From a virus (Duplodnaviria > Caudoviricetes): a stretch of 53,720 bases of DNA. Position 1 is the first letter of the stretch; each line of letters starts with the position of its first letter. The stretch covers positions 1 through 53,720 of the IMG/VR virus record IMGVR_UViG_3300035204_001410; one strand, written 5' to 3'. Shown here piece by piece: positions 1 to 45,714 of the stretch. Under the pieces are notes generated by a model. The model did not search any database. It was not told where the DNA came from and was given only the letters and a program-made list of their open reading frames with translations. Position numbers and translations under genes: made by a program.

Positions 1-95
1 GTTGTCGACGGGCCTATCGTTGTCGACGGGCCTATTGTTGTCGACGGGCCTATTGTTGTCGACGGGCCTATCGTTGTCGACGGGCCTATTGTTGT
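1..95 (-). repeat. 18-bp tandem repeat encoding GPSTTI (mucin-like)
   Basis: gttgtcgacgggcctat(c/t) about 5 times, with another copy near 165-185; coding within the fibre ORF. Confidence 0.9.
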
Positions 96-23201: not shown

Positions 23202-23836
23202 TTCCTTGTTTTTTCTAAAGCCTTTTGGAACTCTTTATCAGATGCTTCTTTTTGCTCTGCTCTTCTTTTGGTTCCTTGCCAATAATTCCAACCATAATCT
23301 ACGAAAAGCTCTTCCCCCATAGCTATATCCCTTATCGAAATTAAATATAATAAAGTTTTATTGGGTACTGGCCAGTAATGGAGGTTATATCCGTCTTTTA
23401 CTTGCTCTTCAAATGGTTTGGAAATAAGGCCATCTTCGCCCGTTTTGTACTCTTCTTTAGTTCTTCCCTCTATTGCTCTTGTGTCGTTTGCAAATCCCCC
23501 AAGACCTATAGTGCTTTCACTTAAAGCGGGATGAGCATCAATACTTTCACCGTTAAGAGGATGGGTTAATACGTAAGGAAAATCTCTTTCCGTGTATCCT
23601 CCTACCAAAGTAAAGTTATAGCGTTTGTTTAAAAGTTCTTCGGGAAATCTGACGGGATCTCCTGCGTCATCCCCCAAAGGAACTCTCTCTGGGTTTTTAG
23701 AAAATACGTCGCCTTTATATTCGCAAACTGGTACTCCTGCAGGAATATCTATACCCGTAAAAAGCCCAACCCCAGCATTTGGAATAGTAGAAACGCGTAT
23801 CATTAATCTATGGGCTATGTTATCTATGATTTTCAT
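23198..23836 (-). CDS. SET-domain lysine methyltransferase
   Basis: STIPNAGVGLF, VCEYKG, GGFAND, RDIAMGEELFVDYGWNYW. Confidence 0.88.
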   Translation of the reverse strand: MKIIDNIAHRLMIRVSTIPNAGVGLFTGIDIPAGVPVCEYKGDVFSKNPERVPLGDDAGDPVRFPEELLNKRYNFTLVGGYTERDFPYVLTHPLNGESIDAHPALSESTIGLGGFANDTRAIEGRTKEEYKTGEDGLISKPFEEQVKDGYNLHYWPVPNKTLLYLISIRDIAMGEELFVDYGWNYWQGTKRRAEQKEASDKEFQKALEKTRK

Positions 23837-24531
23837 ATTAATTCAATATCCCCCTTCTCTAATAAGTCTTTAGCTTTTTTAAGTATGCTTTTTTTTAAAT
23901 TTTTAATTTGTTTATATCCCGGCCTTCGATTCTTTTCGTTAGATGTAAACCCTAACTTTTGCGCAATCTGATCTTCTTCTAGATAACATATATAAAGCCC
24001 TTCGTAGACTATCCATTCATTAGGTTTTAAAATTTTTTTCATTTCTGCATGCATTTTTTTAATATGAATTTCTATATCTGCATGATCATTAAATTTTATA
24101 GAGTTTACTTCTACTTCATGGTCTTCTAGAGATAATGGTATTTTAATGTTATAAGCTGATCTTTTAGTCTTTTCCCACTTAGCATATAGCGGGCATTCAT
24201 CGCATTGTGTTTTATATATTTTGCAAGAACTTTCGCCCTCTGCTGCTTCACATTTTAAACACGGTCGAGCGAAATTCCCATAGTGATTCCTTACCAAATT
24301 TTTAATTTGGTTTGATATAATTCTGTTTAGCCATGGCGCGAGAGGTTTTTCACCATCATACAAATGCCATTTCTCATAGATATGCACTCGGATGATCTGT
24401 GAAACATCATCGTAATCTATCCAATTTAAAGACGTTAGGCTCCATTTTTTGCTTCTTTTGCGTATCTCTTGATTTATAAAGTCAAAACTTTCTTCAAACG
24501 TTGGCTTTGTTACTCCTTTATTCTTTTTCAT
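23833..24531 (-). CDS. Phage sigma70-family factor with Cys-rich insertion
   Basis: Region 2 DYDDVSQ...W.LYD...LAPWLNRIISNQIKN; CLKC..C..CDEC insert; region-4-like HTH EDQIAQKLG. Confidence 0.78.
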   Translation of the reverse strand: MKKNKGVTKPTFEESFDFINQEIRKRSKKWSLTSLNWIDYDDVSQIIRVHIYEKWHLYDGEKPLAPWLNRIISNQIKNLVRNHYGNFARPCLKCEAAEGESSCKIYKTQCDECPLYAKWEKTKRSAYNIKIPLSLEDHEVEVNSIKFNDHADIEIHIKKMHAEMKKILKPNEWIVYEGLYICYLEEDQIAQKLGFTSNEKNRRPGYKQIKNLKKSILKKAKDLLEKGDIELI

Positions 24532-33376: not shown

Positions 33377-33422
33377 TGGTACAATATAACACAGATTAGG
33401 TTGCTTGTCAAGTGGTTTTTGT

Positions 33423-33632
33423 CTACCACTCAGGATATTCTTGTGCATCGTGCCACGCTTCGTCTGCGTATGAACCACAATCATCATCCAAAGTGTATTC
33501 AGCCAGAAAAGGTGTCGTAGGCAGATGCCCCACGCGCTCCAAAGATGGGGTTTCTGTTGGAACTTCTATTCCCTCGCATACTTGGTCGAGAAGTCGTTGG
33601 GTTTCTGGGTCAAAGTCAGGTCCGTTTTTCAT
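33423..33632 (-). CDS. Acidic hypothetical protein, near-leaderless
   Basis: MKNGPDFD start 8 nt after the -10. Confidence 0.7.
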   Translation of the reverse strand: MKNGPDFDPETQRLLDQVCEGIEVPTETPSLERVGHLPTTPFLAEYTLDDDCGSYADEAWHDAQEYPEW

Positions 33633-33665
33633 AATATAATAATATAACACAAGTTAAAGCATTTG

Positions 33666-33974
33666 TCAATCGATTTTTTCATATACTGTATGAGAACTTA
33701 ACCCCACTTCTTCTTTTTCATCTTCCCAATAGTATCCCTCTGGAGGCATGACTTCATCAAGGGCAGTACCTTTAGCTTGACTGATGATATAGGGCTTAAT
33801 CTCGTTCATATCAACGTTTCCCCATTCATTCTCAAAGCCCATCACAAGACCAAAGGCGATGCCGTTTTCGTCTGTCTCTCCGAGGTAATATTCCCAAAAG
33901 TTTTTTAGAATGATATGCTGGTGAACGGCGAAAGGTTCGCCACCTTGGTTGCTGATGATGTTTCTCGGTTTCAT
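33666..33974 (-). CDS. DUF2958-like protein, leaderless
   Basis: WEYY....D...AFGLVMGFENEWG.V...E. Confidence 0.65.
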   Translation of the reverse strand: MKPRNIISNQGGEPFAVHQHIILKNFWEYYLGETDENGIAFGLVMGFENEWGNVDMNEIKPYIISQAKGTALDEVMPPEGYYWEDEKEEVGLSSHTVYEKID

Positions 33975-34013
33975 TGTTACAATATAACACAGAAACGAAT
34001 GCTTGTCAAGTGT

Positions 34014-34085
34014 TGTGAATAACTTTCTGAAAAATAGGGGGGGTAAGTTGGCATACGACGTGCGGCAGCTTCCATGCCAAGTTAC
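34014..34085. repeat. Intergenic element copy E1
   Basis: TGTGAATAACTT-18-TAAGTT-29bp core-AAGTTAC. Confidence 0.9.
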
Positions 34086-34153
34086 TAGTCAATCATTGCT
34101 TTGTGCATAAGTAAAATGACAATGCCTGTCCAAATAATATAAAAAGTTTCCAT
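34085..34153 (-). CDS. 22-aa hydrophobic micropeptide
   Basis: METFYIIWTGIVILLMHKAMID; abuts the upstream gene stop and ends TAG TAA at element E1. Confidence 0.5.
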   Translation of the reverse strand: METFYIIWTGIVILLMHKAMID

Positions 34154-34381
34154 TTATATATCTTCGTTTAGTTCACTAATCAAGTGAGCGATTGTTTGAA
34201 GTGTTTTAGATGGGTCTGGTGATTGTCGTATCATCACAGCCATAACTAGTATTGGGTCATAATCTGATTTGCTACACTCCCTCCATTGGCCTACTTCTTT
34301 TACCCATAACGCAGATTGCCTTGTCCTGCTGTTTTGAAATATGGCAAAGTCTGGTGCTTTCTTATCCATACCATTCATTAC
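34154..34381 (-). CDS. Hypothetical protein
   Basis: ORF coupled to the upstream gene; start uncertain. Confidence 0.6.
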   Translation of the reverse strand, partial: VMNGMDKKAPDFAIFQNSRTRQSALWVKEVGQWRECSKSDYDPILVMAVMIRQSPDPSKTLQTIAHLISELNEDI

Positions 34382-34557
34382 ACGTACCATCTCCCGTTCA
34401 TATACATTGGGCCTTGCGGAAGCTCAATGTTTGTCACGGTATCTTTGACAATCGTAGCTTTTGCCTGAAGGTCAGCACGTAGCTTTTTCGCTTCTTCTGC
34501 TGTGGCTCGCAAAGAAACAATCTCTGCTTCGAGGGGTAGGTTTTTTTCGTTGTTCAT
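34378..34557 (-). CDS. Hypothetical coiled-coil protein, leaderless
   Basis: MNNEKN start 7 nt after the -10. Confidence 0.7.
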   Translation of the reverse strand: MNNEKNLPLEAEIVSLRATAEEAKKLRADLQAKATIVKDTVTNIELPQGPMYMNGRWYV

Positions 34558-34610
34558 TAGATACAATATAACACAGGTTGTAGGTTTTGTCAAGGGCCGT
34601 AATGACTTTT

Positions 34611-34775
34611 TTATTCCATTTCCCGCCAGCTTTCGCCATCGTCGTAAGAAATCAAATCCAATGCGTGAATCACGATTGCCTCTTGTCCAGCATAATCAAA
34701 GCTGTGTACTTCATACTCTATGCCGTCTACCACGGCGTTTCCGTTTTCGTTTAGTTCTATGTCGTTCATAATCAT
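34611..34775 (-). CDS. Acidic hypothetical protein
   Basis: TGGTATATT-6-ATG without a consensus -35. Confidence 0.6.
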   Translation of the reverse strand: MIMNDIELNENGNAVVDGIEYEVHSFDYAGQEAIVIHALDLISYDDGESWREME

Positions 34776-34813
34776 GTGTCTAATATACCATAGGGGGTGA
34801 GACATCCGTAGTC

Positions 34814-35014
34814 CTACCATTCACTTTTTATCATTAAACTTTTCAGCATTTTAATCCGTCTTGGTGGGATATCCCCACCTTGCGGAAGGCTAGGGTAATG
34901 CTCTACCTCTACCCAACCATTAACGGGATGCCTTGGGCTCAGGTCGCTAGTGACGATTCCCAACCATGCACCATTGTCACGGTGACGCACTTTAGTTCCT
35001 GCCTTAATCTTCAT
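34814..35014 (-). CDS. Small SH3-like hypothetical protein, leaderless
   Basis: MKIKAGTKVRH..GIV..; ATG 6 nt after the -10. Confidence 0.65.
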   Translation of the reverse strand: MKIKAGTKVRHRDNGAWLGIVTSDLSPRHPVNGWVEVEHYPSLPQGGDIPPRRIKMLKSLMIKSEW

Positions 35015-35064
35015 TGGTACAATATAACATACAAAAGGGTGTTTGTCAAGGGGTGAGGTACGAT

Positions 35065-35126
35065 TGTGAATAACTTTTTTCGGGTAAGTTGGCATGCGGC
35101 GTGCGGCAGCTTCCATGCCAAGTTAC
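35065..35126. repeat. Intergenic element copy E2
   Basis: TGTGAATAACTT-8-TAAGTT-29bp core-AAGTTAC. Confidence 0.9.
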
Positions 35127-35130
35127 TAAT

Positions 35131-35180
35131 TAAAAAGGCGCAGCGAGCGAAAACATGAAAAAACTCGCTGCACCCTTTTT
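35131..35180 (-). terminator. Probable (bidirectional) terminator after the hydrolase gene
   Basis: aaaaagg-cgcagcgag...ctcgctgc-acccttttt. Confidence 0.6.
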
Positions 35181-35182
35181 GC

Positions 35183-35716
35183 TCACCGTAATTTGTAGAA
35201 TAGATGCCGACCAATTCGTGCAACGGGTAGTTTACCTTTTGTCCAATACGGGCGCACACCGATAGCGTGGTAATGATCTGCAAATCCAGTAAATTTACGA
35301 TTGATAAGTGGTGGTGCTAGACTGGCTAATTGCATAGCAACCTTACCCTCATTCGATGCCCACAACATTGCTGGCGGCACTGGGATACGTCCATTATTCC
35401 AACAAGAGAATTGTTTTCTTTGCAAGCAAACTTGATGCGGTTGTAATTTCCTGTTTATAGCCCTTTGTTGTATAACAGCTAGAACAGCATGCATACCAAC
35501 AGCACCCTCTCCACGAGCTTCACCAAGTAAGGTTAAAGCAACGATCTGTATTGGTGATAAGCCTAGCCTATAAACTGGATGAACAGGTAAGGCAGGTCTT
35601 GGAGTATATGTTGGTTTTGGGTAGTTACTAGGCAAAACCCTAGGTTTAGGTTGTGCAAGAGCGACAGTGCAAACTATAAACACTAGCACCGTAATAATCA
35701 TCCAATGTTTTTTCAT
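35183..35716 (-). CDS. Cell wall hydrolase (SleB/Hydrolase_2) with signal peptide, leaderless
   Basis: TLLGEARGEG..GM.AV..VI..R, QFSCWN, ADHYHA..V.PYW, IGRHLFY. Confidence 0.9.
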   Translation of the reverse strand: MKKHWMIITVLVFIVCTVALAQPKPRVLPSNYPKPTYTPRPALPVHPVYRLGLSPIQIVALTLLGEARGEGAVGMHAVLAVIQQRAINRKLQPHQVCLQRKQFSCWNNGRIPVPPAMLWASNEGKVAMQLASLAPPLINRKFTGFADHYHAIGVRPYWTKGKLPVARIGRHLFYKLR

Positions 35717-35742
35717 AATTTTAGTATAAAGGTTTTTTTAAT

Positions 35743-35907
35743 TTAGTCAAGGGTTTTTTTGTTTATCTTTTTGTATTCAGCCCAAATCTTTTTATGCCAC
35801 TCTTTATAAGCGTCACTTTCAAGGGCTTCACTCATTTCTTTTTTACGTCTCAAGTAAAACTCTTTACTTGTTTCGTTTTTGTTGAATCTCCTATTCTCGT
35901 ACTTCAT
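35743..35907 (-). CDS. Small basic hypothetical protein (54 aa)
   Basis: MKYENRRF; ATGA overlap with the upstream stop. Confidence 0.55.
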   Translation of the reverse strand: MKYENRRFNKNETSKEFYLRRKKEMSEALESDAYKEWHKKIWAEYKKINKKTLD

Positions 35908-36209
35908 GAAAGTAATTCAGAAGGAGGAGAAGTAGCAAGGCCAGAGTTAGGCAATGGTGGCAACTTTGGTAACGGCAACGGTGGCAACGGTGGTAATTGT
36001 ACTTTTGCGATTGGGCTGGAAAGCGAATTCTCGTTTACCGCGAAATGCTTCCTCAAGATGGGAATTGCTTTCTTGATGTTATAAAGCCGATAAGCCTCGG
36101 CTTTAGCCTCTCCGTGAGTCTGCCCCAACTTCTTGGCGGCAATGATGTGGTTGGTTACTTGTGCCGCTTTAACGGCGTTCTTTGCTTGGTAGGTTTTGTA
36201 GGTTTTCAT
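35904..36209 (-). CDS. Hypothetical protein with Pro-rich C-terminus, leaderless
   Basis: MKTYKTYQ start 7 nt after the -10. Confidence 0.7.
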   Translation of the reverse strand: MKTYKTYQAKNAVKAAQVTNHIIAAKKLGQTHGEAKAEAYRLYNIKKAIPILRKHFAVNENSLSSPIAKVQLPPLPPLPLPKLPPLPNSGLATSPPSELLS

Positions 36210-36248
36210 TAGATATAATATAACACAGGTTAGGTTGATTGTCAATAG

Positions 36249-36428
36249 TTAAACGAAATAAATTTGATGAATAATTACAAACCCTAATGCGAGGGATGCG
36301 CCCAAACAGGCAGAAATAATCCACTCGCAATAACGAATTTGTTTCTTGCAACGGGAGATGTCGGCTTGCAGTTCGAGGTTGCTGCGTTGTTGTTTGTAGC
36401 TGGTGTAGGTTTCTTTAATTGCTTTCAT
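36249..36428 (-). CDS. 59-aa tail-anchored membrane protein, leaderless
   Basis: MKAIKETY...WIISACLGASLALGFVIIHQIYFV; ATG 6 nt after the -10. Confidence 0.7.
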   Translation of the reverse strand: MKAIKETYTSYKQQRSNLELQADISRCKKQIRYCEWIISACLGASLALGFVIIHQIYFV

Positions 36429-36463
36429 TAGTATAATATAACACAGGTTAGTGGGTTTGTCAA

Positions 36464-36667
36464 CTAAAATGTTCTATGTTTTAAGTCTTCGGGTGTGGTG
36501 GTTGGTGGTCGCCAACCCTCATCACACTTACAATACTTCGGACAATCATCCTCTGCGCTTCCCTCTTTTGCTACTGTCTCGTGACAGGTAGGACACAGAA
36601 ACAATTGCCTAATCGCTGGATGATCCAAGCAGAATCGCTTTGTTAATGGGCCGAATTTAGTTGTCAT
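36464..36667 (-). CDS. Small Cys-rich (Zn-binding) protein
   Basis: CPTC...CPKYCKC. Confidence 0.6.
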   Translation of the reverse strand: MTTKFGPLTKRFCLDHPAIRQLFLCPTCHETVAKEGSAEDDCPKYCKCDEGWRPPTTTPEDLKHRTF

Positions 36668-36825
36668 ACTAATTCTTTTGTTGCTGTTGGTTCCTTACCC
36701 TCTCGGACTAGGTTAACGTCGAAACAGACTGCGCTTAATAGTTTGCCCTTGTCTGCGTTTCGGTTGCTCGCAATAATTGCCATTGTGAAGATGAAATCGA
36801 TTGCTTTTGATTCTTTAACTGTCAT
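36664..36825 (-). CDS. Hypothetical protein (53 aa)
   Basis: MTVKESK; ATGA overlaps at both ends. Confidence 0.6.
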   Translation of the reverse strand: MTVKESKAIDFIFTMAIIASNRNADKGKLLSAVCFDVNLVREGKEPTATKELV

Positions 36826-37133
36826 TTTACTTCCTCATATACGGGGTTAGTCATACTTGCTCTAGTGCGGTACTCCCACTCTGGAGACATCACGCTAACA
36901 GGTTCCTCACCAGTTTGCACAAACAACTTGCCAACGGCATAATCTAGCCACCAACGCTTTTGTTGATTCCAGTAGAAGTCAATCGCTTTTTCCATATCGG
37001 CAACAAACTTCTGTGTCGCTGGTTTGTGCATACTACTAAAGTGAGCGCAGCACTCATCAAATCCATCCCAGCCAGTAGTTTCCTTTTTGCCTACGGCGTG
37101 AAGTTCAATATAGTAATGTTTTTCGTTTTCCAT
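36822..37133 (-). CDS. Hypothetical protein, leaderless
   Basis: MENEKHYY start 6 nt after the -10. Confidence 0.72.
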   Translation of the reverse strand: MENEKHYYIELHAVGKKETTGWDGFDECCAHFSSMHKPATQKFVADMEKAIDFYWNQQKRWWLDYAVGKLFVQTGEEPVSVMSPEWEYRTRASMTNPVYEEVK

Positions 37134-37164
37134 TGGTACAATATAACACACAAATGACGGTTTG

Positions 37165-37404
37165 TCAAACGATTTTTTTAACTTTCTTAAATCCGTTTTC
37201 GCAGTAGTCCGTAAGCCCTTGCTTGTTAATGAAATGCTCTGCCAATTCGTCAAAGTCATCCTCACCTGTTCCCATGTTGTTGGCGTGCTGCAATGCCCGA
37301 AACAAGCCGCAAGCCTCATAATGATCGTCGCAAGCCTTGGCGGCAGCGAGGTTCTGCTTACGGGTGGTGGGGACTACGTTTTGAAGTTTACCGTTCTTAA
37401 TCAT
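37165..37404 (-). CDS. Hypothetical protein, leaderless
   Basis: MIKNGKL start 6 nt after the -10; stop lies inside the next -35. Confidence 0.72.
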   Translation of the reverse strand: MIKNGKLQNVVPTTRKQNLAAAKACDDHYEACGLFRALQHANNMGTGEDDFDELAEHFINKQGLTDYCENGFKKVKKIV

Positions 37405-37443
37405 TAGTATAATATAACACAAGAACGTCACTTTGTCAAGCGT

Positions 37444-37506
37444 TGTGAATAACTTTTTTTAGGGTAAGTTGGTATGCGGCGTGCTGCAGCTCCCATGCCA
37501 AGTTAC
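37444..37506. repeat. Intergenic element copy E3
   Basis: TGTGAATAACTT-9-TAAGTT-29bp core-AAGTTAC; contains the stop codon of the upstream gene. Confidence 0.9.
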
Positions 37507-37907
37507 TCAACTCTTACTTGAATGTCACTGTCTAGGCCAAGCTGCTTTATTAGCTTCTTCGTTATTTCGTCTTTAGTTATTTCATGCCCTGATTTATCTT
37601 TTGGCTTATCGCCCATAACTTCCTCCCACGGCACATCAATACGCCAACCAAAGGGTAAACACTCATGCCACACACCGTCAATGTTAATGTAGTCACCCAC
37701 CATCATTGAACGAACATTAAGATTCAAGAACTGCTGTGACTCATTGCCTGATCCCGCATTCCATTGCTCCCAAACAAAGTCGAGAATCTCATGATCTGTG
37801 TATTCCCGTTCTGCGTTTGCGTCTAACATCCAATCATAACAGAATTGCCAATCAGAGGAAATCCGTTTGCTGGTGTCGTCGTGATATCTAACTGATACGT
37901 GTTTCAT
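37503..37907 (-). CDS. Hypothetical protein (RSMMVGD motif, YodL-like)
   Basis: VRSMMVGDYINIDGVWHECLPFGW resembles RS.SVGD families. Confidence 0.6.
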   Translation of the reverse strand: MKHVSVRYHDDTSKRISSDWQFCYDWMLDANAEREYTDHEILDFVWEQWNAGSGNESQQFLNLNVRSMMVGDYINIDGVWHECLPFGWRIDVPWEEVMGDKPKDKSGHEITKDEITKKLIKQLGLDSDIQVRVE

Positions 37908-37908
37908 G

Positions 37909-38475
37909 TTAATTACTTTCTTGCGCCTCTGGTGTTGGAACTTGCGCCCATACTTTTGTATGCCCATTCTCTGTGCCTGTCAAAATGACTTTGCGAGCAG
38001 TAAAGATAGGTTCAATCTTATCTTCAATACTACCACGAAAAGGATTAGTATCCTTCGTTACAAAGGTTCGATACTTATAAGGGTTATAAAGAACCTCGCG
38101 CCATTCGTAGCCTTCGCGCTCATCCATATACTGTTTTTCGAAATACTTACTTGCATCTTTGGCGTGACCCTTCTCAAACGCATCCATATCAGCATAAGCC
38201 CATACAGCATTAACTATGCAACCACGAATAACTGCATGGACATTTTTGCGCTGTTCATCACGCACGCGCTGATTCCCTTTCGGGCCTACGGCAAAGGTGA
38301 CAGGGTACTTGGTGTTACCGTCCATGATGACGGTATAGGCGTGACCCTCAACGAGTCCATCCGAGCATTTGCGCACAGAATAAACTGTTTCGTCTCTCCA
38401 GTTAAGATTGCGATAGACTTCCCGACGCATATGCGCCACGGCCTTTTTAGTGTCAGTGATATCGTGTAAAGGCAT
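37909..38475 (-). CDS. Conserved phage hypothetical protein
   Basis: VYRNL...RVRDEQRKNVHA.IRG...YNPYK..TFV pattern common in phages. Confidence 0.72.
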   Translation of the reverse strand: MPLHDITDTKKAVAHMRREVYRNLNWRDETVYSVRKCSDGLVEGHAYTVIMDGNTKYPVTFAVGPKGNQRVRDEQRKNVHAVIRGCIVNAVWAYADMDAFEKGHAKDASKYFEKQYMDEREGYEWREVLYNPYKYRTFVTKDTNPFRGSIEDKIEPIFTARKVILTGTENGHTKVWAQVPTPEAQESN

Positions 38476-38479
38476 AGGA

Positions 38480-38674
38480 TTAGTCTCCAAAAACATTCTC
38501 CCACTCTTCTGGAGTGATGCCTGTTTTAATGAACTCACGCTCATCTGCCGAGAGGTTCGGCATGGCGTTTTGAATGAGTTCGCCACCTTGCCAAGAAGCG
38601 ATCTGCTCCTCAGTAACGTCAATATCCATGACGTTTTTGTTACCACTGAATGGGGATTCTTTCTCGATCAACAT
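38480..38674 (-). CDS. Conserved phage hypothetical protein, leaderless
   Basis: LIQNAMPNLSADEREFIKTGITPEEW. Confidence 0.75.
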   Translation of the reverse strand: MLIEKESPFSGNKNVMDIDVTEEQIASWQGGELIQNAMPNLSADEREFIKTGITPEEWENVFGD

Positions 38675-38723
38675 AATATAATATACCACAAGAACGTTGC
38701 TTTGTCAAGGGGTTTTTTGCTTT

Positions 38724-39041
38724 TTATATCGCTTTCATGGGTAAGCGATGACCCTTCTTGAATTCGTCAAGACTCATGCTCCACACAGTCTCATCATGTT
38801 GCCCATGCTCACCCCAACGATGCACGATCTCTGCCTCACCAACAACACCACCAACGGCAGCAGCATCAGTAAGCAGCTGGTGCGCCTCTTTCAGTAGGGT
38901 GTTGAGACTGTCCCTGTTCTTCGGCAGCATATGGTGTCGGTCACCCAAGAACCAAAGCTCGTAGGTGTGCGTGGATAGACCAAGGTGCTGACGGACTGCT
39001 TCGGCTACTTGAGGAGAGGGGCTTGTTACTTCGATCTTCAT
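38724..39041 (-). CDS. Hypothetical protein, leaderless
   Basis: MKIEVTS start 6 nt after the -10. Confidence 0.7.
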   Translation of the reverse strand: MKIEVTSPSPQVAEAVRQHLGLSTHTYELWFLGDRHHMLPKNRDSLNTLLKEAHQLLTDAAAVGGVVGEAEIVHRWGEHGQHDETVWSMSLDEFKKGHRLPMKAI

Positions 39042-39092
39042 ACCTATAATATAACACCGAAACACCCTCCTGTCAAGGGCTGGCGGTACGAT

Positions 39093-39154
39093 TGTGAATA
39101 ACTTTTTCAGAGTAAGTTGGCATGCTCGCTGCTCCCGCGCCGACCACAAGTTAC
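39093..39154. repeat. Intergenic element copy E4
   Basis: TGTGAATAACTT-8-TAAGTT-29bp core-AAGTTAC; contains the stop codon of the upstream gene. Confidence 0.88.
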
Positions 39155-39294
39155 TGGCAGCCGCAACACGGCGCATCCTCACACCCACACCGTAGGCCGG
39201 GATCATCATACACAGGCTCGGCGTCGAGGTCATCTATCCACGCACACAGGTCGGCATGGTCATCGTCTGAAAACTGGCTATAATGATCGTTCAT
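39151..39294 (-). CDS. 47-aa acidic protein ending CGCEDAPCCGCQ, leaderless
   Basis: ATG 6 nt after the -10; not in the track. Confidence 0.7.
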   Translation of the reverse strand: MNDHYSQFSDDDHADLCAWIDDLDAEPVYDDPGLRCGCEDAPCCGCQ

Positions 39295-39341
39295 AATAAG
39301 AATATAACACGCAAAAGGCTATCTGTCAAGGGGAAAGTTAT

Positions 39342-39527
39342 TCACCACCCCCGTGTGTTCTCGCGTATAGAGTAGCTGCTCAAGTCTTGGTCTGTGAGCT
39401 TGTCCCATCCGCACTTACACTCACCGTACCACGTGCCACCCCACACCTTTGCACCGGGGTACTCTTGGAAGGGTGCTTCATACTCCATCTCGACGGGCGC
39501 ACCACATTTTTCGCATTTGATTTTCAT
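39342..39527 (-). CDS. Zinc-ribbon protein, leaderless
   Basis: CEKCG...CKCGW. Confidence 0.7.
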   Translation of the reverse strand: MKIKCEKCGAPVEMEYEAPFQEYPGAKVWGGTWYGECKCGWDKLTDQDLSSYSIRENTRGW

Positions 39528-39573
39528 TAGTTATAATATAACACAAAAGAATGTAACTGTCAAGTGATTTTAT

Positions 39574-39609
39574 AAAAAAAATGAGATGCTTCTTGTGAGG
39601 GTGCATCCC
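39574..39609 (-). terminator. Terminator closing the ncRNA candidate
   Basis: GGGATGC...GCATCTC-A-T8 on the minus strand. Confidence 0.7.
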
Positions 39610-40144
39610 AACCCACGACCACTTAAGTTTATTCTGGTTGGCCGCTTAACCGCGTTTAGGTTTCTTACTCGCTCCAGTTACCTTCAGGCTCATCGCGCCT
39701 GACCACGTTCCGACTTCACCCTCGGTGGGCTTGTGTTGTTGTTGCCTACTAGCGTTATTGCCAGCAGGGCGTGTTCTTGTTACCTCGCCACGGCTTCCCA
39801 CATTGCCGACAGAAGGATTACTTATCTGCGTCCGGTTGAGGCGAGGGTAAATTACTGCTGGTGTGAGGGGCTCGAACCCTCCCCCGTCCCTATCGTGTCA
39901 CCGTCTAGTTTCAATGCATCTCCACTAGGGGCTTTCAGCCACGGGCGGTATTGCGGTACTTGCCGCCTTATAGGCCCGATACCCGTAATGGGGCGGTAAC
40001 CGTGCGACAGAGGTTATAACCGAATACTTCCAGTCTCACCAACATAAAATGTGTTCTCCTAGTCGTCACGCTGTGTCAGCGAGGTCTTTGACACTTCGAG
40101 CTTCAAGCGTAGGTTTTCGGAGAACTAAACTTCTCTCAAAGAAC
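39574..40144 (-). ncRNA. Candidate large (~570 nt) structured non-coding RNA
   Basis: Consensus promoter 40151-40179 with no start codon at +1; no minus-strand ORF of 60 aa or more; many nested helices; terminal hairpin plus T8. Confidence 0.72.
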
Positions 40145-40360
40145 TACTATAATATACCACGGAAACACCCTTTTGTCAAGCGGTTTTTTAACTTTTTTTA
40201 ATTACCCTAATTAATCGCATTTAATTACCCCTAATTAGCCGCTCACAAATGATCGACAAATCAATTTGCCAACCAAAAAACGCAAAAAATGATCGACAAA
40301 GTTTCGTAAAAAGGGGTGTTTTCTCCGATGTGAAATTCGCTGTTTTTAAGAAACTGTCAG

Positions 40361-40426
40361 TAAGTTGTTAGTAACTTTCTCTGGTAAGTTGTGATCCGCG
40401 CGGGAGCACGCCCCATGCCAAGTTAC
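40361..40426. repeat. Intergenic element copy E5 (core inverted)
   Basis: TGTTAGTAACTT-7-TAAGTT-29bp core-AAGTTAC; core is 22/29 identical to the reverse complement of the E4 core. Confidence 0.85.
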
Positions 40427-40476
40427 TCGCGCCTGTTCCGAGTTACTTTCTTATGGGATGGGGTTTATTTCGATAT

Positions 40477-40659
40477 TTAATTGTTACTATTTAATCTAGC
40501 TTTTTCTGTAAAGCCTTCTTCGGAAAGGTAACAAGCAATATTTTCTAATTCTTCTTGAGTCAATGATTCGTCAGGAAAAATTATTTGTTGCTTGTCATAA
40601 TCTATTAATACAGTATTTCCATAAACGTTAATTTCTTCTATTTGATTTTGAGCTTTCAT
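40477..40659 (-). CDS. Hypothetical protein
   Basis: 60-aa ORF with YL.EEGF ending common in phage small proteins. Confidence 0.6.
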   Translation of the reverse strand: MKAQNQIEEINVYGNTVLIDYDKQQIIFPDESLTQEELENIACYLSEEGFTEKARLNSNN

Positions 40660-40807
40660 TATCGATTAGTCTTTGCATTATATCTTCCCAGCGTTGCCTG
40701 TCTAATCCAATTTCATCTTCGTTTAACTGTATTGGTAACATTTCCCAAAAGCTAGTTTGCGAAAAGGTTTGAATTAGGTTCAGCCGGTCTTTGTCTGTTA
40801 TATTCAT
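40628..40807 (-). CDS. Hypothetical protein
   Basis: MNITDKDRL. Confidence 0.55.
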   Translation of the reverse strand: MNITDKDRLNLIQTFSQTSFWEMLPIQLNEDEIGLDRQRWEDIMQRLIDNESSKSNRRN

Positions 40808-40809
40808 GA

Positions 40810-40881
40810 TTATAATTTTCTCCACATCTGTATTCCTAAGGCTATGATGCCTATAAACAAAAGTATGGTTATAATTTCCAT
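40810..40881 (-). CDS. 23-aa hydrophobic micropeptide
   Basis: MEIITILLFIGIIALGIQMWRKL with AAGGA upstream. Confidence 0.55.
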   Translation of the reverse strand: MEIITILLFIGIIALGIQMWRKL

Positions 40882-40895
40882 GGGGATCCTTTCTG

Positions 40896-41633
40896 TTATG
40901 CTGTTGCTAGTTGTTGTTTGTTTGCTTTTTTGATTGCTGACAACGCCACGCTTGCCACACTACCCTTGGGCTGCGTACCATGAATCAACAACGCAAAATT
41001 CTCTTTACCAAATGCTGCGTGTGTGTCGTCGTGGTCAATTTCCAAGTCACGCTCTTTTGCTTCTTGCTCGCTGTAAACGACAAGAGCTTCTTTCCATCCG
41101 TGCAAATCAATTAGCTCGTCGTGCTTGCCACCACGGGAAGCAGTTAAAACTAAATTTTCGGGAAGGGCAAACTGTTTGAAGAAATGCAAGCTCTTGGAAT
41201 AAGAGTAAAACACTTTGTCGGGATTCCTTTTGGCAACTTCAATCCACGCTTGCAAATACTTGGCGTTAAAATAATCACCGCCAACGTGAACGCGCATAAT
41301 GTCGAACTTTTTTGGAAGTGATTCGCAAATCAAATCCGCGCAAGCATCGACACCATCCACAAGTGAATCTTTTAGCAAGCCAAGGTTATGCCAAACCATT
41401 TTTCGCAATGATGGATACGTTGCTTCTGCACTAGCAGCAAAACAACGAAACTGCGTGTCAGGCCCATCTTGAATCTTGCCCGTTTGCCTATCTGCACGCG
41501 ACAAACAATCTTTTGCACCGGGGCAAGTATGCCCTGCGGGAAGCGTAAAGGTTTTGAGGGTTAGGCCGAGCTTCCGAATCATTTTCTTGAGCTTGGAGTT
41601 CGGATCTCCAAATCGTAGTAGGTTGTTGTTCAT
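40896..41633 (-). CDS. GP88-family protein, leaderless
   Basis: NSKL, FTLPAGHTCPGAKDC...CFA, RVHVGGDYF, YSYSK. Confidence 0.75.
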   Translation of the reverse strand: MNNNLLRFGDPNSKLKKMIRKLGLTLKTFTLPAGHTCPGAKDCLSRADRQTGKIQDGPDTQFRCFAASAEATYPSLRKMVWHNLGLLKDSLVDGVDACADLICESLPKKFDIMRVHVGGDYFNAKYLQAWIEVAKRNPDKVFYSYSKSLHFFKQFALPENLVLTASRGGKHDELIDLHGWKEALVVYSEQEAKERDLEIDHDDTHAAFGKENFALLIHGTQPKGSVASVALSAIKKANKQQLATA

Positions 41634-41664
41634 AATAACAATATAACACAGGTTTTGGGTTTTG

Positions 41665-42126
41665 TCAAACGGTTTGTAATCTGCTGCGTTGGCTTGCAGC
41701 GTTTTGCTTATATTCTTCTTCATCAAACGCCCTTACTTGAGCAGGGTTTTCTCTTGCCTCTGTACGGCCTATCGAATAATCATAAACGATTGGATCAGTA
41801 GACACAAACGCTTCGGAATTTTCCTTTAGTTCTTCCATACGTCGATTTGCAAGCCTTTGAGCCTCGCTCTTAACGCCGCCTTTTTCTCCCTTGAATCTGT
41901 TAGGGTACTTGTTAAGAAGTAAATGCAATGACGAGTTGAAAAAATACTTTTCTAGCTTTTCTTCACTGGTGGTAATATAAGCAAACGTATCACACATCCA
42001 ATGTAGTCCTCCGCCCGTTGCTTGGTGGTTCCAGAAGGAATAATACTGTTCTATAATTTTTTGTTCATCATTAGATTCAATACCTACGAGAGCAACTGTT
42101 CCGAGTGGTTGATATACGAGTTTCAT
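41665..42126 (-). CDS. Hypothetical protein, near-leaderless
   Basis: ATG 9 nt after the -10; stop lies inside the next -35. Confidence 0.72.
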   Translation of the reverse strand: MKLVYQPLGTVALVGIESNDEQKIIEQYYSFWNHQATGGGLHWMCDTFAYITTSEEKLEKYFFNSSLHLLLNKYPNRFKGEKGGVKSEAQRLANRRMEELKENSEAFVSTDPIVYDYSIGRTEARENPAQVRAFDEEEYKQNAASQRSRLQTV

Positions 42127-42153
42127 AACTAATACAATATAACACGTAAAAGG

Positions 42154-42309
42154 CTATCTGTCAAGGGGTTTCTGATGTTTTTTTCTACGACGAAAAGACC
42201 CTTTACCCTTTCTCACGCGATGTTCCCTAGATGCACTACCCATAAGTCCGTCTTTGTTCACTCGCGCGCGAGGGTGGGCGCGTTGGTTTCTTTGTCTTTT
42301 CCTTTTCAC
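42154..42309 (-). CDS. ArfA-like basic peptide (51 aa, GTG start, leaderless)
   Basis: RVRKGKGSFRRRKKH matches the ArfA KKGKGSYxRKxKH signature. Confidence 0.6.
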   Translation of the reverse strand: MKRKRQRNQRAHPRARVNKDGLMGSASREHRVRKGKGSFRRRKKHQKPLDR

Positions 42310-42348
42310 AATAACAATATACCACAAGAACATCACTTTGTCAAGGGT

Positions 42349-42421
42349 TGTGAATACTTTGTTAATAACTTTCTCAGGGTAAGTTGGCATAAAAGCTGCC
42401 GCACGCCGCATGCCAAGTTAC
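42349..42421. repeat. Intergenic element copy E6 (core inverted, box duplicated at 11 bp)
   Basis: Core is 27/29 identical to the reverse complement of the E2 core. Confidence 0.9.
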
Positions 42422-42438
42422 CACAAAAACTTACTCAC

Positions 42439-42462
42439 AAAAAAACCCCGCGCATGGCGGGG
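42439..42462 (-). terminator. Rho-independent terminator
   Basis: CCCCGC-CATGC-GCGGGG followed by T7. Confidence 0.82.
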
Positions 42463-42483
42463 TGTGCTGGTAGGTTATTAGCG

Positions 42484-43374
42484 TTATTCCGTAACGGTCA
42501 CAACCACATCCTTCTCCTTCGCGGGAGTCCAGAGCTTTTTCAAGCGGTTAGGGTTGCGAGCAGCAAGGTCAAAACGCCGCAGCACGTTAGTAGTGACACG
42601 GTTGGCATACTCAAAACGAGAGTCAGCAACCTCATGCGTAACGTGTTGAGTCACGGCATTGTTAAGGTTGTAAAGGTTGCGAGCCTTATCCTCATCGTGT
42701 GTAGGGTTAACCCAGATTTTTGCAATCTCCTCGCGTAGCTTTTCAGAGATAACCTTGCCTTGGGTGAGAGTCTTGAGAATGTTCAAGCCCTGTTCTTCGC
42801 TCAAGTCAACTTGAGCCAAACGACCATAAACGCTGACACTATCCTTGAGCTTGGCAAGAGCATTGTCAAGCGCGTCATCAGTGACAAGGTCAGCAATGTT
42901 TAGTTGTTTGGAGTGCTTTTTCACCATGTCCACCTCTTTTTCGGTGGTGGTCATACCGTTGGTGCAAACGAGACGAACCAAGCCAAGCGCAAACGAAACA
43001 CGCAAGGAACGGTCAAACGAGTTTTGTGCCGTCAAGCGGTAAGCCATAACGTCACCCACTTGCGGTACTTCAGACTGAAACAGGTCGCCACCTAAATCAT
43101 ACTGCGCTCGCATTTTCGCGCCACCTTCAGTGACAATCACCTTGCGAGTAACGTCGATACCGCGAGCCTCAAAAGCCTCATCGGCACGGGCAAGAACGTC
43201 ACGGTGATTCACAAGACCGTAACGCTCTGAAGTCCAACCCAGAATCTCGTTGTTGTCCTCACGGACGTTCATAAAATAGCCAGACTTACCGCCTTTTACT
43301 GGGTGAGGAACCTCCACTTGGTTCACGGTGAAATCGAAATCAGTGTTAATGGATTGTTTTGCTGCGATACTCAT
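42484..43374 (-). CDS. DUF932/DUF945-family protein
   Basis: VSERY.LV.H-like segment, NSFDRS...GLVRLVCTNG, LYNLNNAVT. Confidence 0.82.
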   Translation of the reverse strand: MSIAAKQSINTDFDFTVNQVEVPHPVKGGKSGYFMNVREDNNEILGWTSERYGLVNHRDVLARADEAFEARGIDVTRKVIVTEGGAKMRAQYDLGGDLFQSEVPQVGDVMAYRLTAQNSFDRSLRVSFALGLVRLVCTNGMTTTEKEVDMVKKHSKQLNIADLVTDDALDNALAKLKDSVSVYGRLAQVDLSEEQGLNILKTLTQGKVISEKLREEIAKIWVNPTHDEDKARNLYNLNNAVTQHVTHEVADSRFEYANRVTTNVLRRFDLAARNPNRLKKLWTPAKEKDVVVTVTE

Positions 43375-43444
43375 TTTTTTCTTTCTGTTAAGGGTTAGTT
43401 TCTTTCGCTTTGTTACTTATAATATACCACAATTTTTAAGAAAG

Positions 43445-43663
43445 TCAAGGCGTAAAAGTGATTTTCTTAAACTTTTTTCTAGTTGACACGCAGCCCTCGC
43501 ATTCACAACCCTCAAGCACTAGGGACAGACTCAATTTTTCGTTAGGAGTTAACCCTTCAAGCGGGGGAGCGGCACAAGTCAGGCACTTACCGTTGTTTTC
43601 CTTAAGCAGTAAGGCGTCATTGCCGCACTGATTGCAAGGTTCAAAGGTGGTTTGCGTTGTCAT
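43445..43663 (-). CDS. Cys-rich Zn-binding protein, leaderless
   Basis: CNQC, CLTC, CECEGC. Confidence 0.65.
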   Translation of the reverse strand: MTTQTTFEPCNQCGNDALLLKENNGKCLTCAAPPLEGLTPNEKLSLSLVLEGCECEGCVSTRKKFKKITFTP

Positions 43664-43702
43664 TGTTACAATATACCACAAGAATGTCGCTTTGTCAAGG
43701 GT

Positions 43703-43774
43703 TGTGAATAACTTTCTTATGGTAAGTTGTGGTAAGTTGGCATCCGGCGTGCTGCGCGTTTTTTACCAAGTTAC
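43703..43774. repeat. Intergenic element copy E7 (10-bp duplication of GGTAAGTTG)
   Basis: TGTGAATAACTT-8-TAAGTT-4-TAAGTT-29bp core-AAGTTAC. Confidence 0.88.
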
Positions 43775-43801
43775 AAGCATAAAATAAAAAAAATTTAATA
43801 T

Positions 43802-43836
43802 AAAAAAACTCTCCCTTACTATTATTTCGGGGAGAG
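43802..43836 (-). terminator. Probable terminator
   Basis: CTCTCCC...GGGAGAG followed by T7. Confidence 0.7.
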
Positions 43837-43999
43837 CCATTATTTGACCTATTTACCTGTATCCTATTATTTCTATTATTTCTATTATTTACAGTTATTT
43901 AAAAGTTTGGCGGGAACCGTTGATTGCGTCTCTGCCTTGTTGCCTACTGGCATAACACGGAACGGCATCAGGGCATTACCCCGCCTTAAATTATTATTA

Positions 44000-44356
44000 T
44001 TACCACCAACTACTATAATACAATTTATTATTATTGTTTAATATCTCTTTAGCTTTACTTATAAAACTTAAGTCATCATTTTTATATCCATATTCATCAT
44101 CTTCATAATCTTTATATGAATCATTACCAAAGAAAAATCCTTGTGTTTCAGGTAAATTTTTATTTAGTATTGTTGCCTCTAGCTGGTCAATGTCCTCAAG
44201 AGTTAATTCAACATCAACACAATTAAACTCCTCCATACCACCTTTGCGGCGATACAATTCTTCCATCCATCCTTGCAGACGATTGTGTTTGCGCCAGTAG
44301 AATACGTCTTCCCGTTCTTCTCCTGTGCCTGTGAATGCGTATTGGTCTAGTCCCAT
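44000..44356 (-). CDS. Conserved phage hypothetical protein
   Basis: MGLDQYA, YWRKHNRLQGWM, LP.T.GFFFG, YYSSWW. Confidence 0.8.
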   Translation of the reverse strand: MGLDQYAFTGTGEEREDVFYWRKHNRLQGWMEELYRRKGGMEEFNCVDVELTLEDIDQLEATILNKNLPETQGFFFGNDSYKDYEDDEYGYKNDDLSFISKAKEILNNNNKLYYSSWW

Positions 44357-44368
44357 GATATAATACTC

Positions 44369-45391
44369 CTATTTTATGTTGTGTGTTTTAAGGTAATCCA
44401 AACCTTGTTTAGAGAGAGAGCGTCCACCAGTGCCTATGTTCATTAGACTCTGTTTCTGCAAATACATCTCAAAGTCACGACGAATACACTCGGTAGTCAT
44501 GCCAACCTTCGCCGCAAGATTTGTAAGACTGCAAACCTTACGTTCGCGCAACGCTTTTAAAATCTGGATCTCGATGTCACTCAAGCCGAGAGGCATTATG
44601 CCTAAAGCGTGTTTTAGCTTGCTCCAATCACCCGCATCAAACTCCTTCTTCTTGGCGCGAGCGAGATAACTTTTCATATCGTTTGCCATCTTCTGCGCTG
44701 CCCTAGCGTTACCACGCAAGACTGTTGCGATCTCCTCCAACACCTCTGGGTCTGCCTTCATCGTCTCATTGTCCAAATTCAACTGGACAATTTTACCAAG
44801 CTCGCTCAAAGTATATTCCTCCATGTCAATACGATCACAACGATCAATCAACGCATGGAAAATCTTGTGTGCCTCTGTCGTAGCAAACATAAACGATTGT
44901 CTACGAAAATTAAAGTCAAACGTCCTGTCCTCGTAAGTCATCGTGTTAAAATGCTTGTCGTTTGGATTCAACGCAGTTAACAAGAACATGGTTACATCAG
45001 TAGGCAACATATGTGCCTCGTCAAATAAGACGGTAACTTCCTTGTTCATAATACGCTCCATAAGCAAGCCTTCAACAAATTGCGGAACAGACTTGATGCT
45101 GGAACAGTTAACTTCCAAGAAACGCTTGGGTGCTTTACCAGCAGGAACCTCGACAGTATTCCTGTCGCCAAATTCGTCAATAGTTGTACGAGACGTTGGT
45201 TCTGCCGAGAGAAGGTTGCGACCTACTGCTTTGGCAAGCATGGTCTTACCACACCCTTTAGGTGCAATAAACATCATGTGAGGCAATATCTTTGTTGCGT
45301 CAAAGTTGTCGAGATGAAAGTCTAACTTTCTTTTTGCTTTGGTTTGTCCGATAAGACCTTTGAAACGGTCTTTCTTTGTAGGTTTTGTCAT
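44369..45391 (-). CDS. RuvB-like AAA+ ATPase
   Basis: LIGQ, APKGCGKT, LFDEAH, ATT, DR finger, RGNARAA sensor 2, C-terminal winged helix (E.YL...GR). Confidence 0.82.
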   Translation of the reverse strand: MTKPTKKDRFKGLIGQTKAKRKLDFHLDNFDATKILPHMMFIAPKGCGKTMLAKAVGRNLLSAEPTSRTTIDEFGDRNTVEVPAGKAPKRFLEVNCSSIKSVPQFVEGLLMERIMNKEVTVLFDEAHMLPTDVTMFLLTALNPNDKHFNTMTYEDRTFDFNFRRQSFMFATTEAHKIFHALIDRCDRIDMEEYTLSELGKIVQLNLDNETMKADPEVLEEIATVLRGNARAAQKMANDMKSYLARAKKKEFDAGDWSKLKHALGIMPLGLSDIEIQILKALRERKVCSLTNLAAKVGMTTECIRRDFEMYLQKQSLMNIGTGGRSLSKQGLDYLKTHNIK

Positions 45392-45417
45392 AGTATAGGT
45401 TTTTAGGTTTTTTAGGT

Positions 45418-45654
45418 TTACCAGTTTTCTTCATCTACTTGAACCAGCGGCTCAAGTTCCTCACTCTTAAAGTCAACTGGTTTCTTCGCTTTAATGTTTG
45501 TCGTACTCGCTTCAAATTGCTCAACCTCAAGATTCAGAGTCTCCGCAAACCGACGAGAGACAACAACAACAGCGTCCTCTTTTAATACGCGATTCAACTC
45601 CTTCAGATTCACTTGGAGGAAGCTACCCGCGCCTTTTGTCTTTCCTCTTGCCAT
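45418..45654 (-). CDS. Hypothetical protein, leaderless
   Basis: ATG 6 nt after a class B -10. Confidence 0.72.
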   Translation of the reverse strand: MARGKTKGAGSFLQVNLKELNRVLKEDAVVVVSRRFAETLNLEVEQFEASTTNIKAKKPVDFKSEELEPLVQVDEENW

Positions 45655-45714
45655 ACTACTAATATACCAGCTTTTTTAAAAAAGTCAAGCCCCTAATGGA
45701 ACTTTTTTTAATTT

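Follow-up and report, generated by a model that had tools for sequence, protein, structure and literature searches.

The closest described counterpart of the element considered here is the promoter-early stem-loop (PeSL) cassette of T4-type phages, reported for RB49/phi1, PST/T4 and nt-1/KVP40 (Arbiol et al. 2010, PMC2839356; Comeau et al. 2014, PMC4122927). According to these accounts, a PeSL is a composite intergenic cassette that begins at the upstream stop codon and reaches as far as the downstream start, combines an inverted repeat with an AT-rich tract and a near-consensus sigma70 early promoter, and carries a Shine-Dalgarno sequence and the start codon at its 3' end. Such cassettes cluster in hyperplastic regions of small open reading frames (ORFs) and are shuffled between relatives. 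The element analyzed here is a 43-bp quasi-palindrome present in seven copies, E1 to E7, in the viral record IMGVR_UViG_3300035204_001410. The window is this whole IMG/VR record of 53,720 bases, estimated to represent 35% of the genome. The cassettes of the window share with PeSLs the composite layout, the three components, the clustering and the shuffling. In contrast, the genes of the window are leaderless and lack a Shine-Dalgarno sequence, while the element itself has an invariant length, a sigma54-type box sequence and no sign of selection for interior pairing. It is also helically phased to the promoter, and sister phages appear to swap the sigma70 promoter for a -24/-12 promoter. Moreover, the phage is not T4-like by its terminase: the window encodes a T4-type large terminase, and its best matches among cultured phages, the terminases of Bacillus phages, reach only 25% identity.

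A second point of comparison is provided by enterobacterial sigma54 promoters and by the non-productive and intragenic sigma54 binding sites described together with them (Samuels et al. 2013, PMC3844500). In that account, recognition centres on the GG and TGC at -24 and -12, Salmonella sites include TGGCATGAAAGCTGCT-type sequences, and antisense and interference roles of opposing sites are discussed. The likeness to the window element lies in TGGCAYR-N4-yTGC with exact GG-N10-GC spacing and in the occurrence of sites in either orientation relative to genes (PMC3844500). The differences are that the window joins two boxes head to head within a constant 33-bp frame, once per cassette and in a virus, and that binding is predicted from sequence, with no activator or sigma54 gene found here.

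The palindromic character of the element invites comparison with two further systems. In chloroplast non-coding DNA, hairpin-associated micro-inversions flip a short segment between the arms of an inverted repeat without a recombinase; the flipped segment of the window differs in carrying functional-looking boxes and in its strongly constrained length. Integron attC sites and REP/BIME elements are likewise imperfect palindromes located at the 3' ends of cassettes or genes, arranged in arrays and, in the case of REP, found in either orientation. Here, in contrast, neither an integrase nor a RAYT/Y1 transposase was found, the length does not vary as theirs does, and the element is tied to a downstream promoter.

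The pattern GTAACTT-N29-AACTTAC was found seven times on the minus strand of the whole window, not once on the plus strand and not once in the reversed-pattern control (Table 1). The seven intergenic copies and the fixed 29-bp spacing described in the initial annotation were thus recovered. All copies lie within 34-44 kb of the window, a region of small ORFs, and all large ORFs of the window are on the minus strand. Along this gene strand the order is a stop codon, the 43-mer, an A-tract with AAGTTATTCACA, a TTGACA-N17-(TG)nTATATT promoter and an ATG. Every copy is preceded by a stop codon or a terminator, and the TAA of the left flank itself supplies the upstream stop, as had been proposed, at E3 (37503) and at E4 (39151, the stop of ORF 39294-39151). 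The box TGTGAATAACTT, regarded earlier as part of every copy and corresponding to AAGTTATTCACA in Table 1, is exact in five of the seven, whereas E5 and E6 carry variants; when up to two mismatches are allowed, 20 matches are obtained and 8.9 would be expected. Small early-gene cassettes in one hyperplastic region are separated by intergenic linkers, of which the seven copies form the upstream module.

Six of the seven copies sit 29-40 bp upstream of a consensus sigma70-type promoter, with the A-tract between the element and the -35 hexamer and TG preceding TATATT. The exception is E5, which is followed by about 200 nt of conserved non-coding DNA before the next promoter at 40179. Consequently, the placement of each copy between the end of one transcription unit and the next promoter holds for six copies and lacks a direct promoter at the seventh. 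In the 33.4-51.7 kb interval the coding strand matches the pattern TTGAC[AT]-N16-18-TAnnnT at 22 sites, six of them preceded by the element. An ATG follows the -10 hexamer by 5-9 nt at 17 of the 22 promoters (by exactly 6 nt at 11) and opens ORFs of 47-245 aa. Because this distance leaves no room for a Shine-Dalgarno sequence, the early genes at 33400-45700 (minus strand) are considered leaderless. The start codon of the GP88 gene is supported by the alignment of its N-terminus with homologues from the first residues. The ATGs within the CATGCC arms of the element were also considered as leaderless starts and rejected: E2 is the only copy where they share the reading frame of the downstream gene, and the CGTGCC arms of relatives lack them.

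Together with the inner TT and AA, the 29 bp form a 33-bp frame, TTGGCAYG-N6-GC-N-GC-N6-CRTGCCAA. Each half of this frame reads TGGCAY-N5-sTGC, which is the GG-N10-GC geometry of -24/-12 sigma54-type promoters, and the centre base is common to both halves (16+1+16). With the inner flank bases included, the half-site becomes AAsTTGGCAYG-N4-sTGC. When the whole window was scanned on both strands with TGGCAYN5BTGC, 10 matches were obtained against 0.33 expected, all inside the seven copies and at least one in every copy; none of 100 shuffles reached this number. The fuller sigma54 consensus is TGGCACG-N4-TTGCW. The version used here, TGGCAYR-N4-YTGCW, relies on the enterobacterial account (PMC3844500), and the base preceding TGC in the window boxes is C or G and not T. 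In the window, the mirrored GC-rich arm stands where the melting and start region would be, and no gene follows the box. Overall, the element is most likely a binding site for a polymerase or a factor at the DNA level, and the chances of a sigma54-type site are put at about even.

A search of IMG/VR with the exact-arm pattern gave no match, and a loose 14-base pattern gave 118 single matches there, which were evidently due to chance and were dropped. The RuvB-like protein encoded at the head of the array led to 14 viral IMG/VR loci (45-57% aa identity; designated by L numbers), all with the same cassette architecture. The 33-bp frame is present in seven of the 14, which represent five distinct phages, as two pairs are duplicates. 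Among the resulting 31 copies, window included, the promoter-proximal arm RTGCCAA is found in 28, the distal arm TTGGCAY in 21 and the GC-N-GC centre in 29. In a 162-kb relative estimated as 96% complete, all seven copies lie at 6.3-15.1 kb, within 9 kb; two other relatives carry three and five copies in equally narrow regions, and the controls gave none in any of the three. Because these were whole-record scans, the element can be regarded as family-wide and confined to one hyperplastic region, in line with the confinement to the early region for which the initial annotation had suggested a check.

A larger sample was assembled from 70 metagenome loci reached through the DUF932 protein (65-100% aa identity), which together with the window gave 106 unique window-type copies. 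The distance from GTAAsTTG to CAAsTTAC is exactly 27 bp in 103 of 103 copies, so that the fixed spacing extends to relatives. Nine longer regex matches are nested extra GTAAGTTG copies. The left flank is in register in 80 of the 81 copies with RTGCCAACTTAC, and the interior A-runs vary by substitution and not by length. Conservation among 94 distinct copies peaks at GTAA.TTG, GC.GCA and ATGCCAACTTAC; within the upstream-facing half TTGGCAT and TGC are highly conserved, the spacer little. The strict box is met in the upstream-facing (antisense) half of 87 of the 106 copies and in the sense half of 37, with 27 copies having both and 9 neither.

The distance to the promoter is also constrained. 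A sigma70-type promoter lies within 75 nt in 76 of the 104 copies with enough flank, and the distances from the element to the -35 hexamer cluster at 18-19, 27-30, 38-42, 49-53 and 60-61 bp, with some off-phase at 31-35. The Rayleigh R is 0.60 and peaks at a period of 10.5 bp, a value exceeded by none of 5000 uniform nulls. After removal of the modal distance class, R is 0.41 and is exceeded by 6 of 5000 nulls.

A different account of the palindrome is that it is a classical PeSL stem-loop, formed in RNA or as a DNA cruciform, which terminates or attenuates read-through, the sigma54-like sequence being incidental or a relic. Its place, with the upstream stop on one side and an AT-rich tract plus a strong sigma70 promoter on the other, is the published PeSL layout (PMC2839356, PMC4122927). 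From lineage to lineage the two arms change together and remain inverted repeats, the palindrome of L130 is followed by T8-9, and the interiors of L139 and L159 pair well. RNA folding z-scores of the window copies range from -2.27 to +1.45: E2 (-2.27) and E6 (-1.97) fold better than shuffles, but the other five (-0.93 to +1.45) do no better, and E4 and E5 have no hairpin. At interior positions 9-19 of the 94 distinct copies no covariation was found, pairing being no commoner than with shuffled partners and at some positions rarer. Furthermore, none of the window copies is followed by a T-run, separate terminators stand just upstream of E2 and E6, and the invariant length, the helical phasing and the conservation of one half would be left unexplained. 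A stem-loop function is accordingly rated as unlikely, though it keeps some share of the probability.

Another explanation in terms of protein binding is that the element is an operator for a symmetric DNA-binding protein, encoded by the phage or the host and unrelated to sigma54, placed at the activator or repressor positions of some early promoters. The palindromic framework, in which neither the centre (GC-N-GC) nor the outer arms vary and the spacing is constant, is what such an operator would look like. The phased distances put the centre near -70, -81, -91 and -102 in the usual -35/-10 numbering, which are presumably comparable to class I activator positions. Of 103 copies, 34 have extra GTAAGTT sequences in the 45 nt upstream and 70 have AAGTTAY or RTAACTT in the 40 nt downstream, which suggests an array of short sites. 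The unequal conservation of the halves, 87 against 37 of 106, speaks against this possibility. It would also require a coincidence, as the half-site with its AAsT flank equals the stand-alone promoter of sister phages described below, and no DNA-binding protein was recognised by Pfam among 10 neighbouring proteins. An unrelated operator is therefore a doubtful alternative, of the same order as the stem-loop.

The initial annotation was concerned above all with the orientation of the core, and its comparisons were reproduced. The E6 core is identical to the inverted E2 core at 27 of 29 positions, against 17 in the direct comparison, and E4 and E5 agree at 22 positions inverted against 13 direct. 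For E6 the direct and inverted values are 19 and 25 with E1, 17 and 24 with E3, and 15 and 22 with E7; composition-shuffled cores have a mean identity of 8.2 and a maximum of 16. The flanks, said always to point the same way, do so in the window, but this rests on one base: GTAAsTTG and CAAsTTAC form a perfect inverted repeat apart from the centre base s. Similarly, the statement that the G of the flanks is never converted to C is correct for this window only, since the centre bases (left, right) of the 106 copies are CC in 56, GC in 44, CG in 5 and GG in 1.

These observations gave rise to the proposal of an active site for inversion or recombination; it could work as a switch or, as an attC/REP-like hairpin site, mobilise cassettes. 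Cores in both orientations between fixed flanks are in its favour, as are the shuffling of cassettes among relatives and the many contig joints that link promoter and element regions in two runs, although most of these joints have sides under 30 letters and are treated as weak. However, profiles PF00239 (Resolvase), PF00589 (Phage_integrase) and PF01797 (Y1_Tnp) had no matches in the window, which had been described as free of visible recombinases, or in four relatives, one of them 96% complete. A segment of 29 bp is too short for a looped synapse, and the free variation of the flank centre bases in relatives implies no fixed crossover point.

Orientation within populations was judged from assembled Logan contigs, which break at repeats and in which rare variants are invisible. 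Contigs from a second study that span E1, E5, E6 and E7 differ from the window by 6, 13, 8 and 4 letters in total. The identity of each of these cores to its own inversion is 18, 10, 16 and 14 of 29, so an inverted core alone would add 11, 19, 13 and 15 mismatches; the contigs consequently have the orientation of the window. At the E7 position, upstream of the DUF932 gene, the window-type element has the E7 orientation in 32 of 32 loci (75-92% aa identity). At the E6 position, downstream of the same gene, 24 loci carry a window-type element, of which 7 are closer to E6 in the direct and 16 in the inverted comparison, with one tie. In the 16 inverted-closer loci the left arm is degenerate and the box faces upstream. 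The two of these relatives with at least 96% identity have an element identical to E6, and orientation differences at this position occur only between relatives that are about 90% identical or less. Orientation thus appears to change on an evolutionary time scale and to be fixed within lineages, without acting as a switch; micro-inversion or gene conversion among near-palindromic copies would explain both orientations. An active inversion site is accordingly regarded as very improbable.

Exchange of whole cassettes is better documented. Gene order in the hyperplastic region is scrambled among the 14 relatives. The cassette at 37413-37178 is 91% identical at the nucleotide level to L129 19434-19669, where it adjoins the homologue of a cassette located 2.4 kb away in the window, while these phages share no more than 53% amino acid identity in their RuvB-like genes. 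This difference indicates recent horizontal exchange of a single cassette.

Support for reading the half-site as a promoter-type box comes from sister phages in which the box stands alone. In L128 (G004), TGGCAYR-N4-YTGCW occurs 16 times in 8 kb, 16 times forward and never in reverse, in the sense of the genes, with none palindromic; controls gave none, and no sigma70-type promoter is present in this locus. Stand-alone sense boxes number 11 in L130 (G005; control 0), 22 in L159, 2 in L164 and 4 in L165. An ATG lies 9-12 nt past the 16-mer box in 12 of 16 cases in L128, 18 of 22 in L159, 2 of 2 in L164 and 4 of 4 in L165, whereas no antisense box has an ATG at this distance. Between the box and the ATG lies an AT-rich stretch (g-TATA-gg-t), and by geometry a sigma54-type start region fits in all five loci. 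Since the ATG falls at +1/+2 of the expected -24/-12 start, the design would be leaderless, as in the sigma70-type cassettes.

The GP88 gene offers a direct comparison. In the window it is preceded by TTGACA-17-TATATT-N6-ATG (MNNNLLRFGDPN), and its orthologue in L128 and L159 by TGGCATGAAaCCTGCT-N11-ATG (MTNLLKFGDPN). On the predicted promoter classes, this orthologue directly displays the swap of a sigma70-type for a -24/-12-type promoter. The AAsT before TGGCA is common to the sister promoters and the window element, which suggests that each half corresponds to about -31 to -12 of that promoter. A sigma70- or T7-type promoter was considered for the stand-alone box and rejected: counted from the ATG, conservation is confined to blocks at -28..-21 and -16..-12, and the TATA-like stretch is constant neither in place nor in sequence. 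A search of the records for a T7-like RNA polymerase gave no match, but its control also gave none, so that it is uninformative. If the predictions hold, the stand-alone box would be a real promoter in the sister phages.

Taken together, the element is a real, selected cis-acting element of rigid geometry between transcription units, as initially suggested. Of the roles then offered, a protein-binding platform appears the most likely. In the mechanism considered here, the element would act as double-stranded DNA and bind the reader of -24/-12 promoters, for which the host sigma54 holoenzyme is the obvious candidate. It would be held at a fixed geometry and on a fixed helical face upstream of an early promoter. 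As the mirrored arm would replace the melting and start region and the retained box would face upstream, the site could be non-productive, with a parked polymerase serving as insulator or roadblock, or it could be an antisense promoter that regulates neighbouring cassettes. The bound element would then insulate or time these cassettes. The conserved linker would also offer homology for recombination during cassette shuffling, as proposed for PeSLs, and the orientation of the core would record which half carries which box variant.

The version of the platform that is not supported is a centromere-like array for the phage tubulin. As a partition array, or more generally a replication or packaging signal, the element would fit the presence of a tubulin/FtsZ-family gene in the window and the repeated, phased sites. 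Nevertheless, the copies lie 18-28 kb from the tubulin gene and 1-2.4 kb apart, one per cassette and not in tandem, and the seven copies of the 162-kb relative fall in one 9-kb early region. Their helical phase ties them to promoters, and their sequence is that of a promoter-type box. Such a role is considered most improbable.

Several points weigh against a sigma54-type binding site. No match to Sigma54_DBD and no enhancer-binding activator was found in the window or the relatives, some of whose records are incomplete; the sole Sigma54_activat signal is weak and comes from the Walker-A region of the RuvB-like gene. Because the phages encode sigma70-family factors, a phage factor and not sigma54 could read the box. 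As the element accompanies only six of the 22 promoters, promoter function does not depend on it. A single upstream-facing box does not explain why the left flank GTAAsTTG stays invariant in copies with a degenerate left box. The equivalent palindrome of L128/L159 has TTGCA arms, lacks a -24 box and pairs well internally, and that of L139 is a G7/C7 hairpin; these favour a hairpin role at least in those lineages, and such a role may be ancestral or may coexist with a binding role. Finally, as the copies share descent, the statistics of phasing and conservation overstate their independence and are suggestive only.

The genomic setting of the array can be described briefly. Sequence words of the window occur in seawater and marine plankton metagenomes, and a near-identity search of the 34-44 kb region against cultured phages gave no match at the DNA level. 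The window encodes RIIA, GP88 and DUF932 proteins in addition to the genes listed in Table 1. The RuvB-like AAA+ protein matches PDB RuvB structures (E 3e-9) across the AAA lid and the C-terminal winged helix, and is labelled a clamp loader in PHROGs. It was rejected as a sigma54 activator, since the RuvB match is full length, no GAFTGA motif was seen and the Sigma54_activat match is limited to Walker-A. Up to three sigma70-family factors are encoded in relatives. The small, highly conserved protein downstream of E6 (42306-42154, minus strand) has a leaderless GTG start, relatives that are 53-85% identical, and a weak, sub-threshold match to ArfA, an alternative ribosome-rescue factor (E 0.0013), through a KGKGSFRRRKKH-type tail.

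Some further sequences of the region stand apart from the palindrome. A GTGAATAACTT box (window 39345-39335; also in L127, L129, L131 and L137) is found upstream of -35 hexamers in both orientations and at differing distances, also at promoters without the palindrome, and may bind a factor of its own. Beyond E5, the non-coding DNA (40360-40185, minus strand) is 75-82% conserved in L127, L131, L133 and L136 and contains TTTGTCGATCATTT twice and TAATTAGGG(G)TAATTAAA twice as direct repeats of iteron-like appearance. After the promoter at 40179, a stretch of about 300 nt (40150-39860, minus strand) has no convincing ORF, and its end resembles the T-arm of a tRNA followed by ACCA (GAGGGTTCGAGCCCCTC...ACCA); one portion matches L136 at 79% identity. 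Rfam (whole window at the gathering threshold; 39600-40480 at an E-value threshold) and ARAGORN recognised nothing, and the stretch is a candidate structured RNA.

Table 1. Features of the cassette array and its surroundings (window positions unless a relative is named)
Feature	Position	Strand	Remarks
E1	34043-34085	minus	43-bp quasi-palindrome; -24/-12-type boxes on both strands
E2	35084-35126	minus	boxes on both strands
E3	37464-37506	minus	sense-strand box TGGCATGGGAGCTGC; left-flank TAA ends ORF 37967-37503
E4	39112-39154	minus	box on plus (antisense) strand only; left arm degenerate (TTGTGGTC)
E5	40384-40426	minus	sense-strand box only; right arm degenerate
E6	42379-42421	minus	boxes on both strands; core orientation opposite to that of E1-E3 and E7
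E7	43732-43774	minus	box on plus (antisense) strand; left arm TTGGTAAAAAA
Hairpin + T5 just upstream of E2	about 35175-35132	minus	terminator-like
Intrinsic-terminator-like hairpin + T7	42445-42463	minus	between DUF932 gene stop and E6
AAGTTATTCACA box downstream of E1	34014-34025	minus	between E1 and -35 hexamer
AAGTTATTCACA box downstream of E2	35065-35076	minus	
AAGTTATTCACA box downstream of E3	37444-37455	minus	
AAGTTATTCACA box downstream of E4	39093-39104	minus	
AAGTTATTAACA variant box downstream of E6	42360-42371	minus	
AAGTTATTCACA box downstream of E7	43703-43714	minus	
Sigma70-type promoter after E1	33981-34009	minus	TTGACA-17-TATATT; ATG 6 nt past -10 hexamer
Sigma70-type promoter after E2	35021-35049	minus	ATG 6 nt past -10 hexamer
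Sigma70-type promoter after E3	37411-37439	minus	ATG 6 nt past -10 hexamer
Sigma70-type promoter after E4	39048-39076	minus	ATG 6 nt past -10 hexamer
Sigma70-type promoter after E6	42316-42344	minus	GTG 6 nt past -10 hexamer
Sigma70-type promoter after E7	43670-43698	minus	ATG 6 nt past -10 hexamer
RuvB-like AAA+ protein	44369-45391	minus	head of cassette array; conserved in all relatives
Sigma70-family factor (Sigma70_r2 domain)	23833-24531	minus	ORF
Tubulin/FtsZ-family gene	15391-16548		
Giant collagen-like tail-fibre ORF	3-8939	minus	at least 2,979 aa; runs off record end
Sister-phage box arrays (TGGCACGGAACCTGCT)	L128 2465-10098; L130 14488-20562; L159 760-10001; L164; L165		each box 10-12 nt ahead of a small gene's ATG, replacing a sigma70-type promoter

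The literature searched, the coverage of which is incomplete, yielded no account of -24/-12 leaderless promoters arrayed in a virus, nor of boxes fused head to head; PMC3391216 mentions a sigma54-type regulator gene in one phage. A broader and more tentative picture, to which a low probability is attached, is that a marine phage family wires interchangeable leaderless cassettes to either the sigma70 or the sigma54 holoenzyme, with the fused boxes, set in helical register ahead of early promoters, serving as polymerase traps or antisense promoters in sigma70-wired genomes such as this one. If this is true, the fused boxes could time the shut-off of early genes, insulate cassettes, or, with hundreds of genome copies, titrate host sigma54 from stress regulons. 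The boxes of the sister phages, if they are real promoters, would constitute arrays of sigma54-type leaderless promoters in a virus, and would show that phages can exchange one sigma class for another in driving the same cassette.

As a sharply delimited 43-bp object, the element lends itself to studies of the way in which dozens of tiny early genes are insulated or timed by a virus: its length is constant in more than 100 natural variants, its interior varies and its position is phased. It also extends the idea underlying PeSLs, namely that conserved regulatory linkers act as engines of modular shuffling, beyond the T4-type phages. Even if it should prove to be a relic palindrome, it would be a useful marker of cassette boundaries in this uncultured marine phage group.

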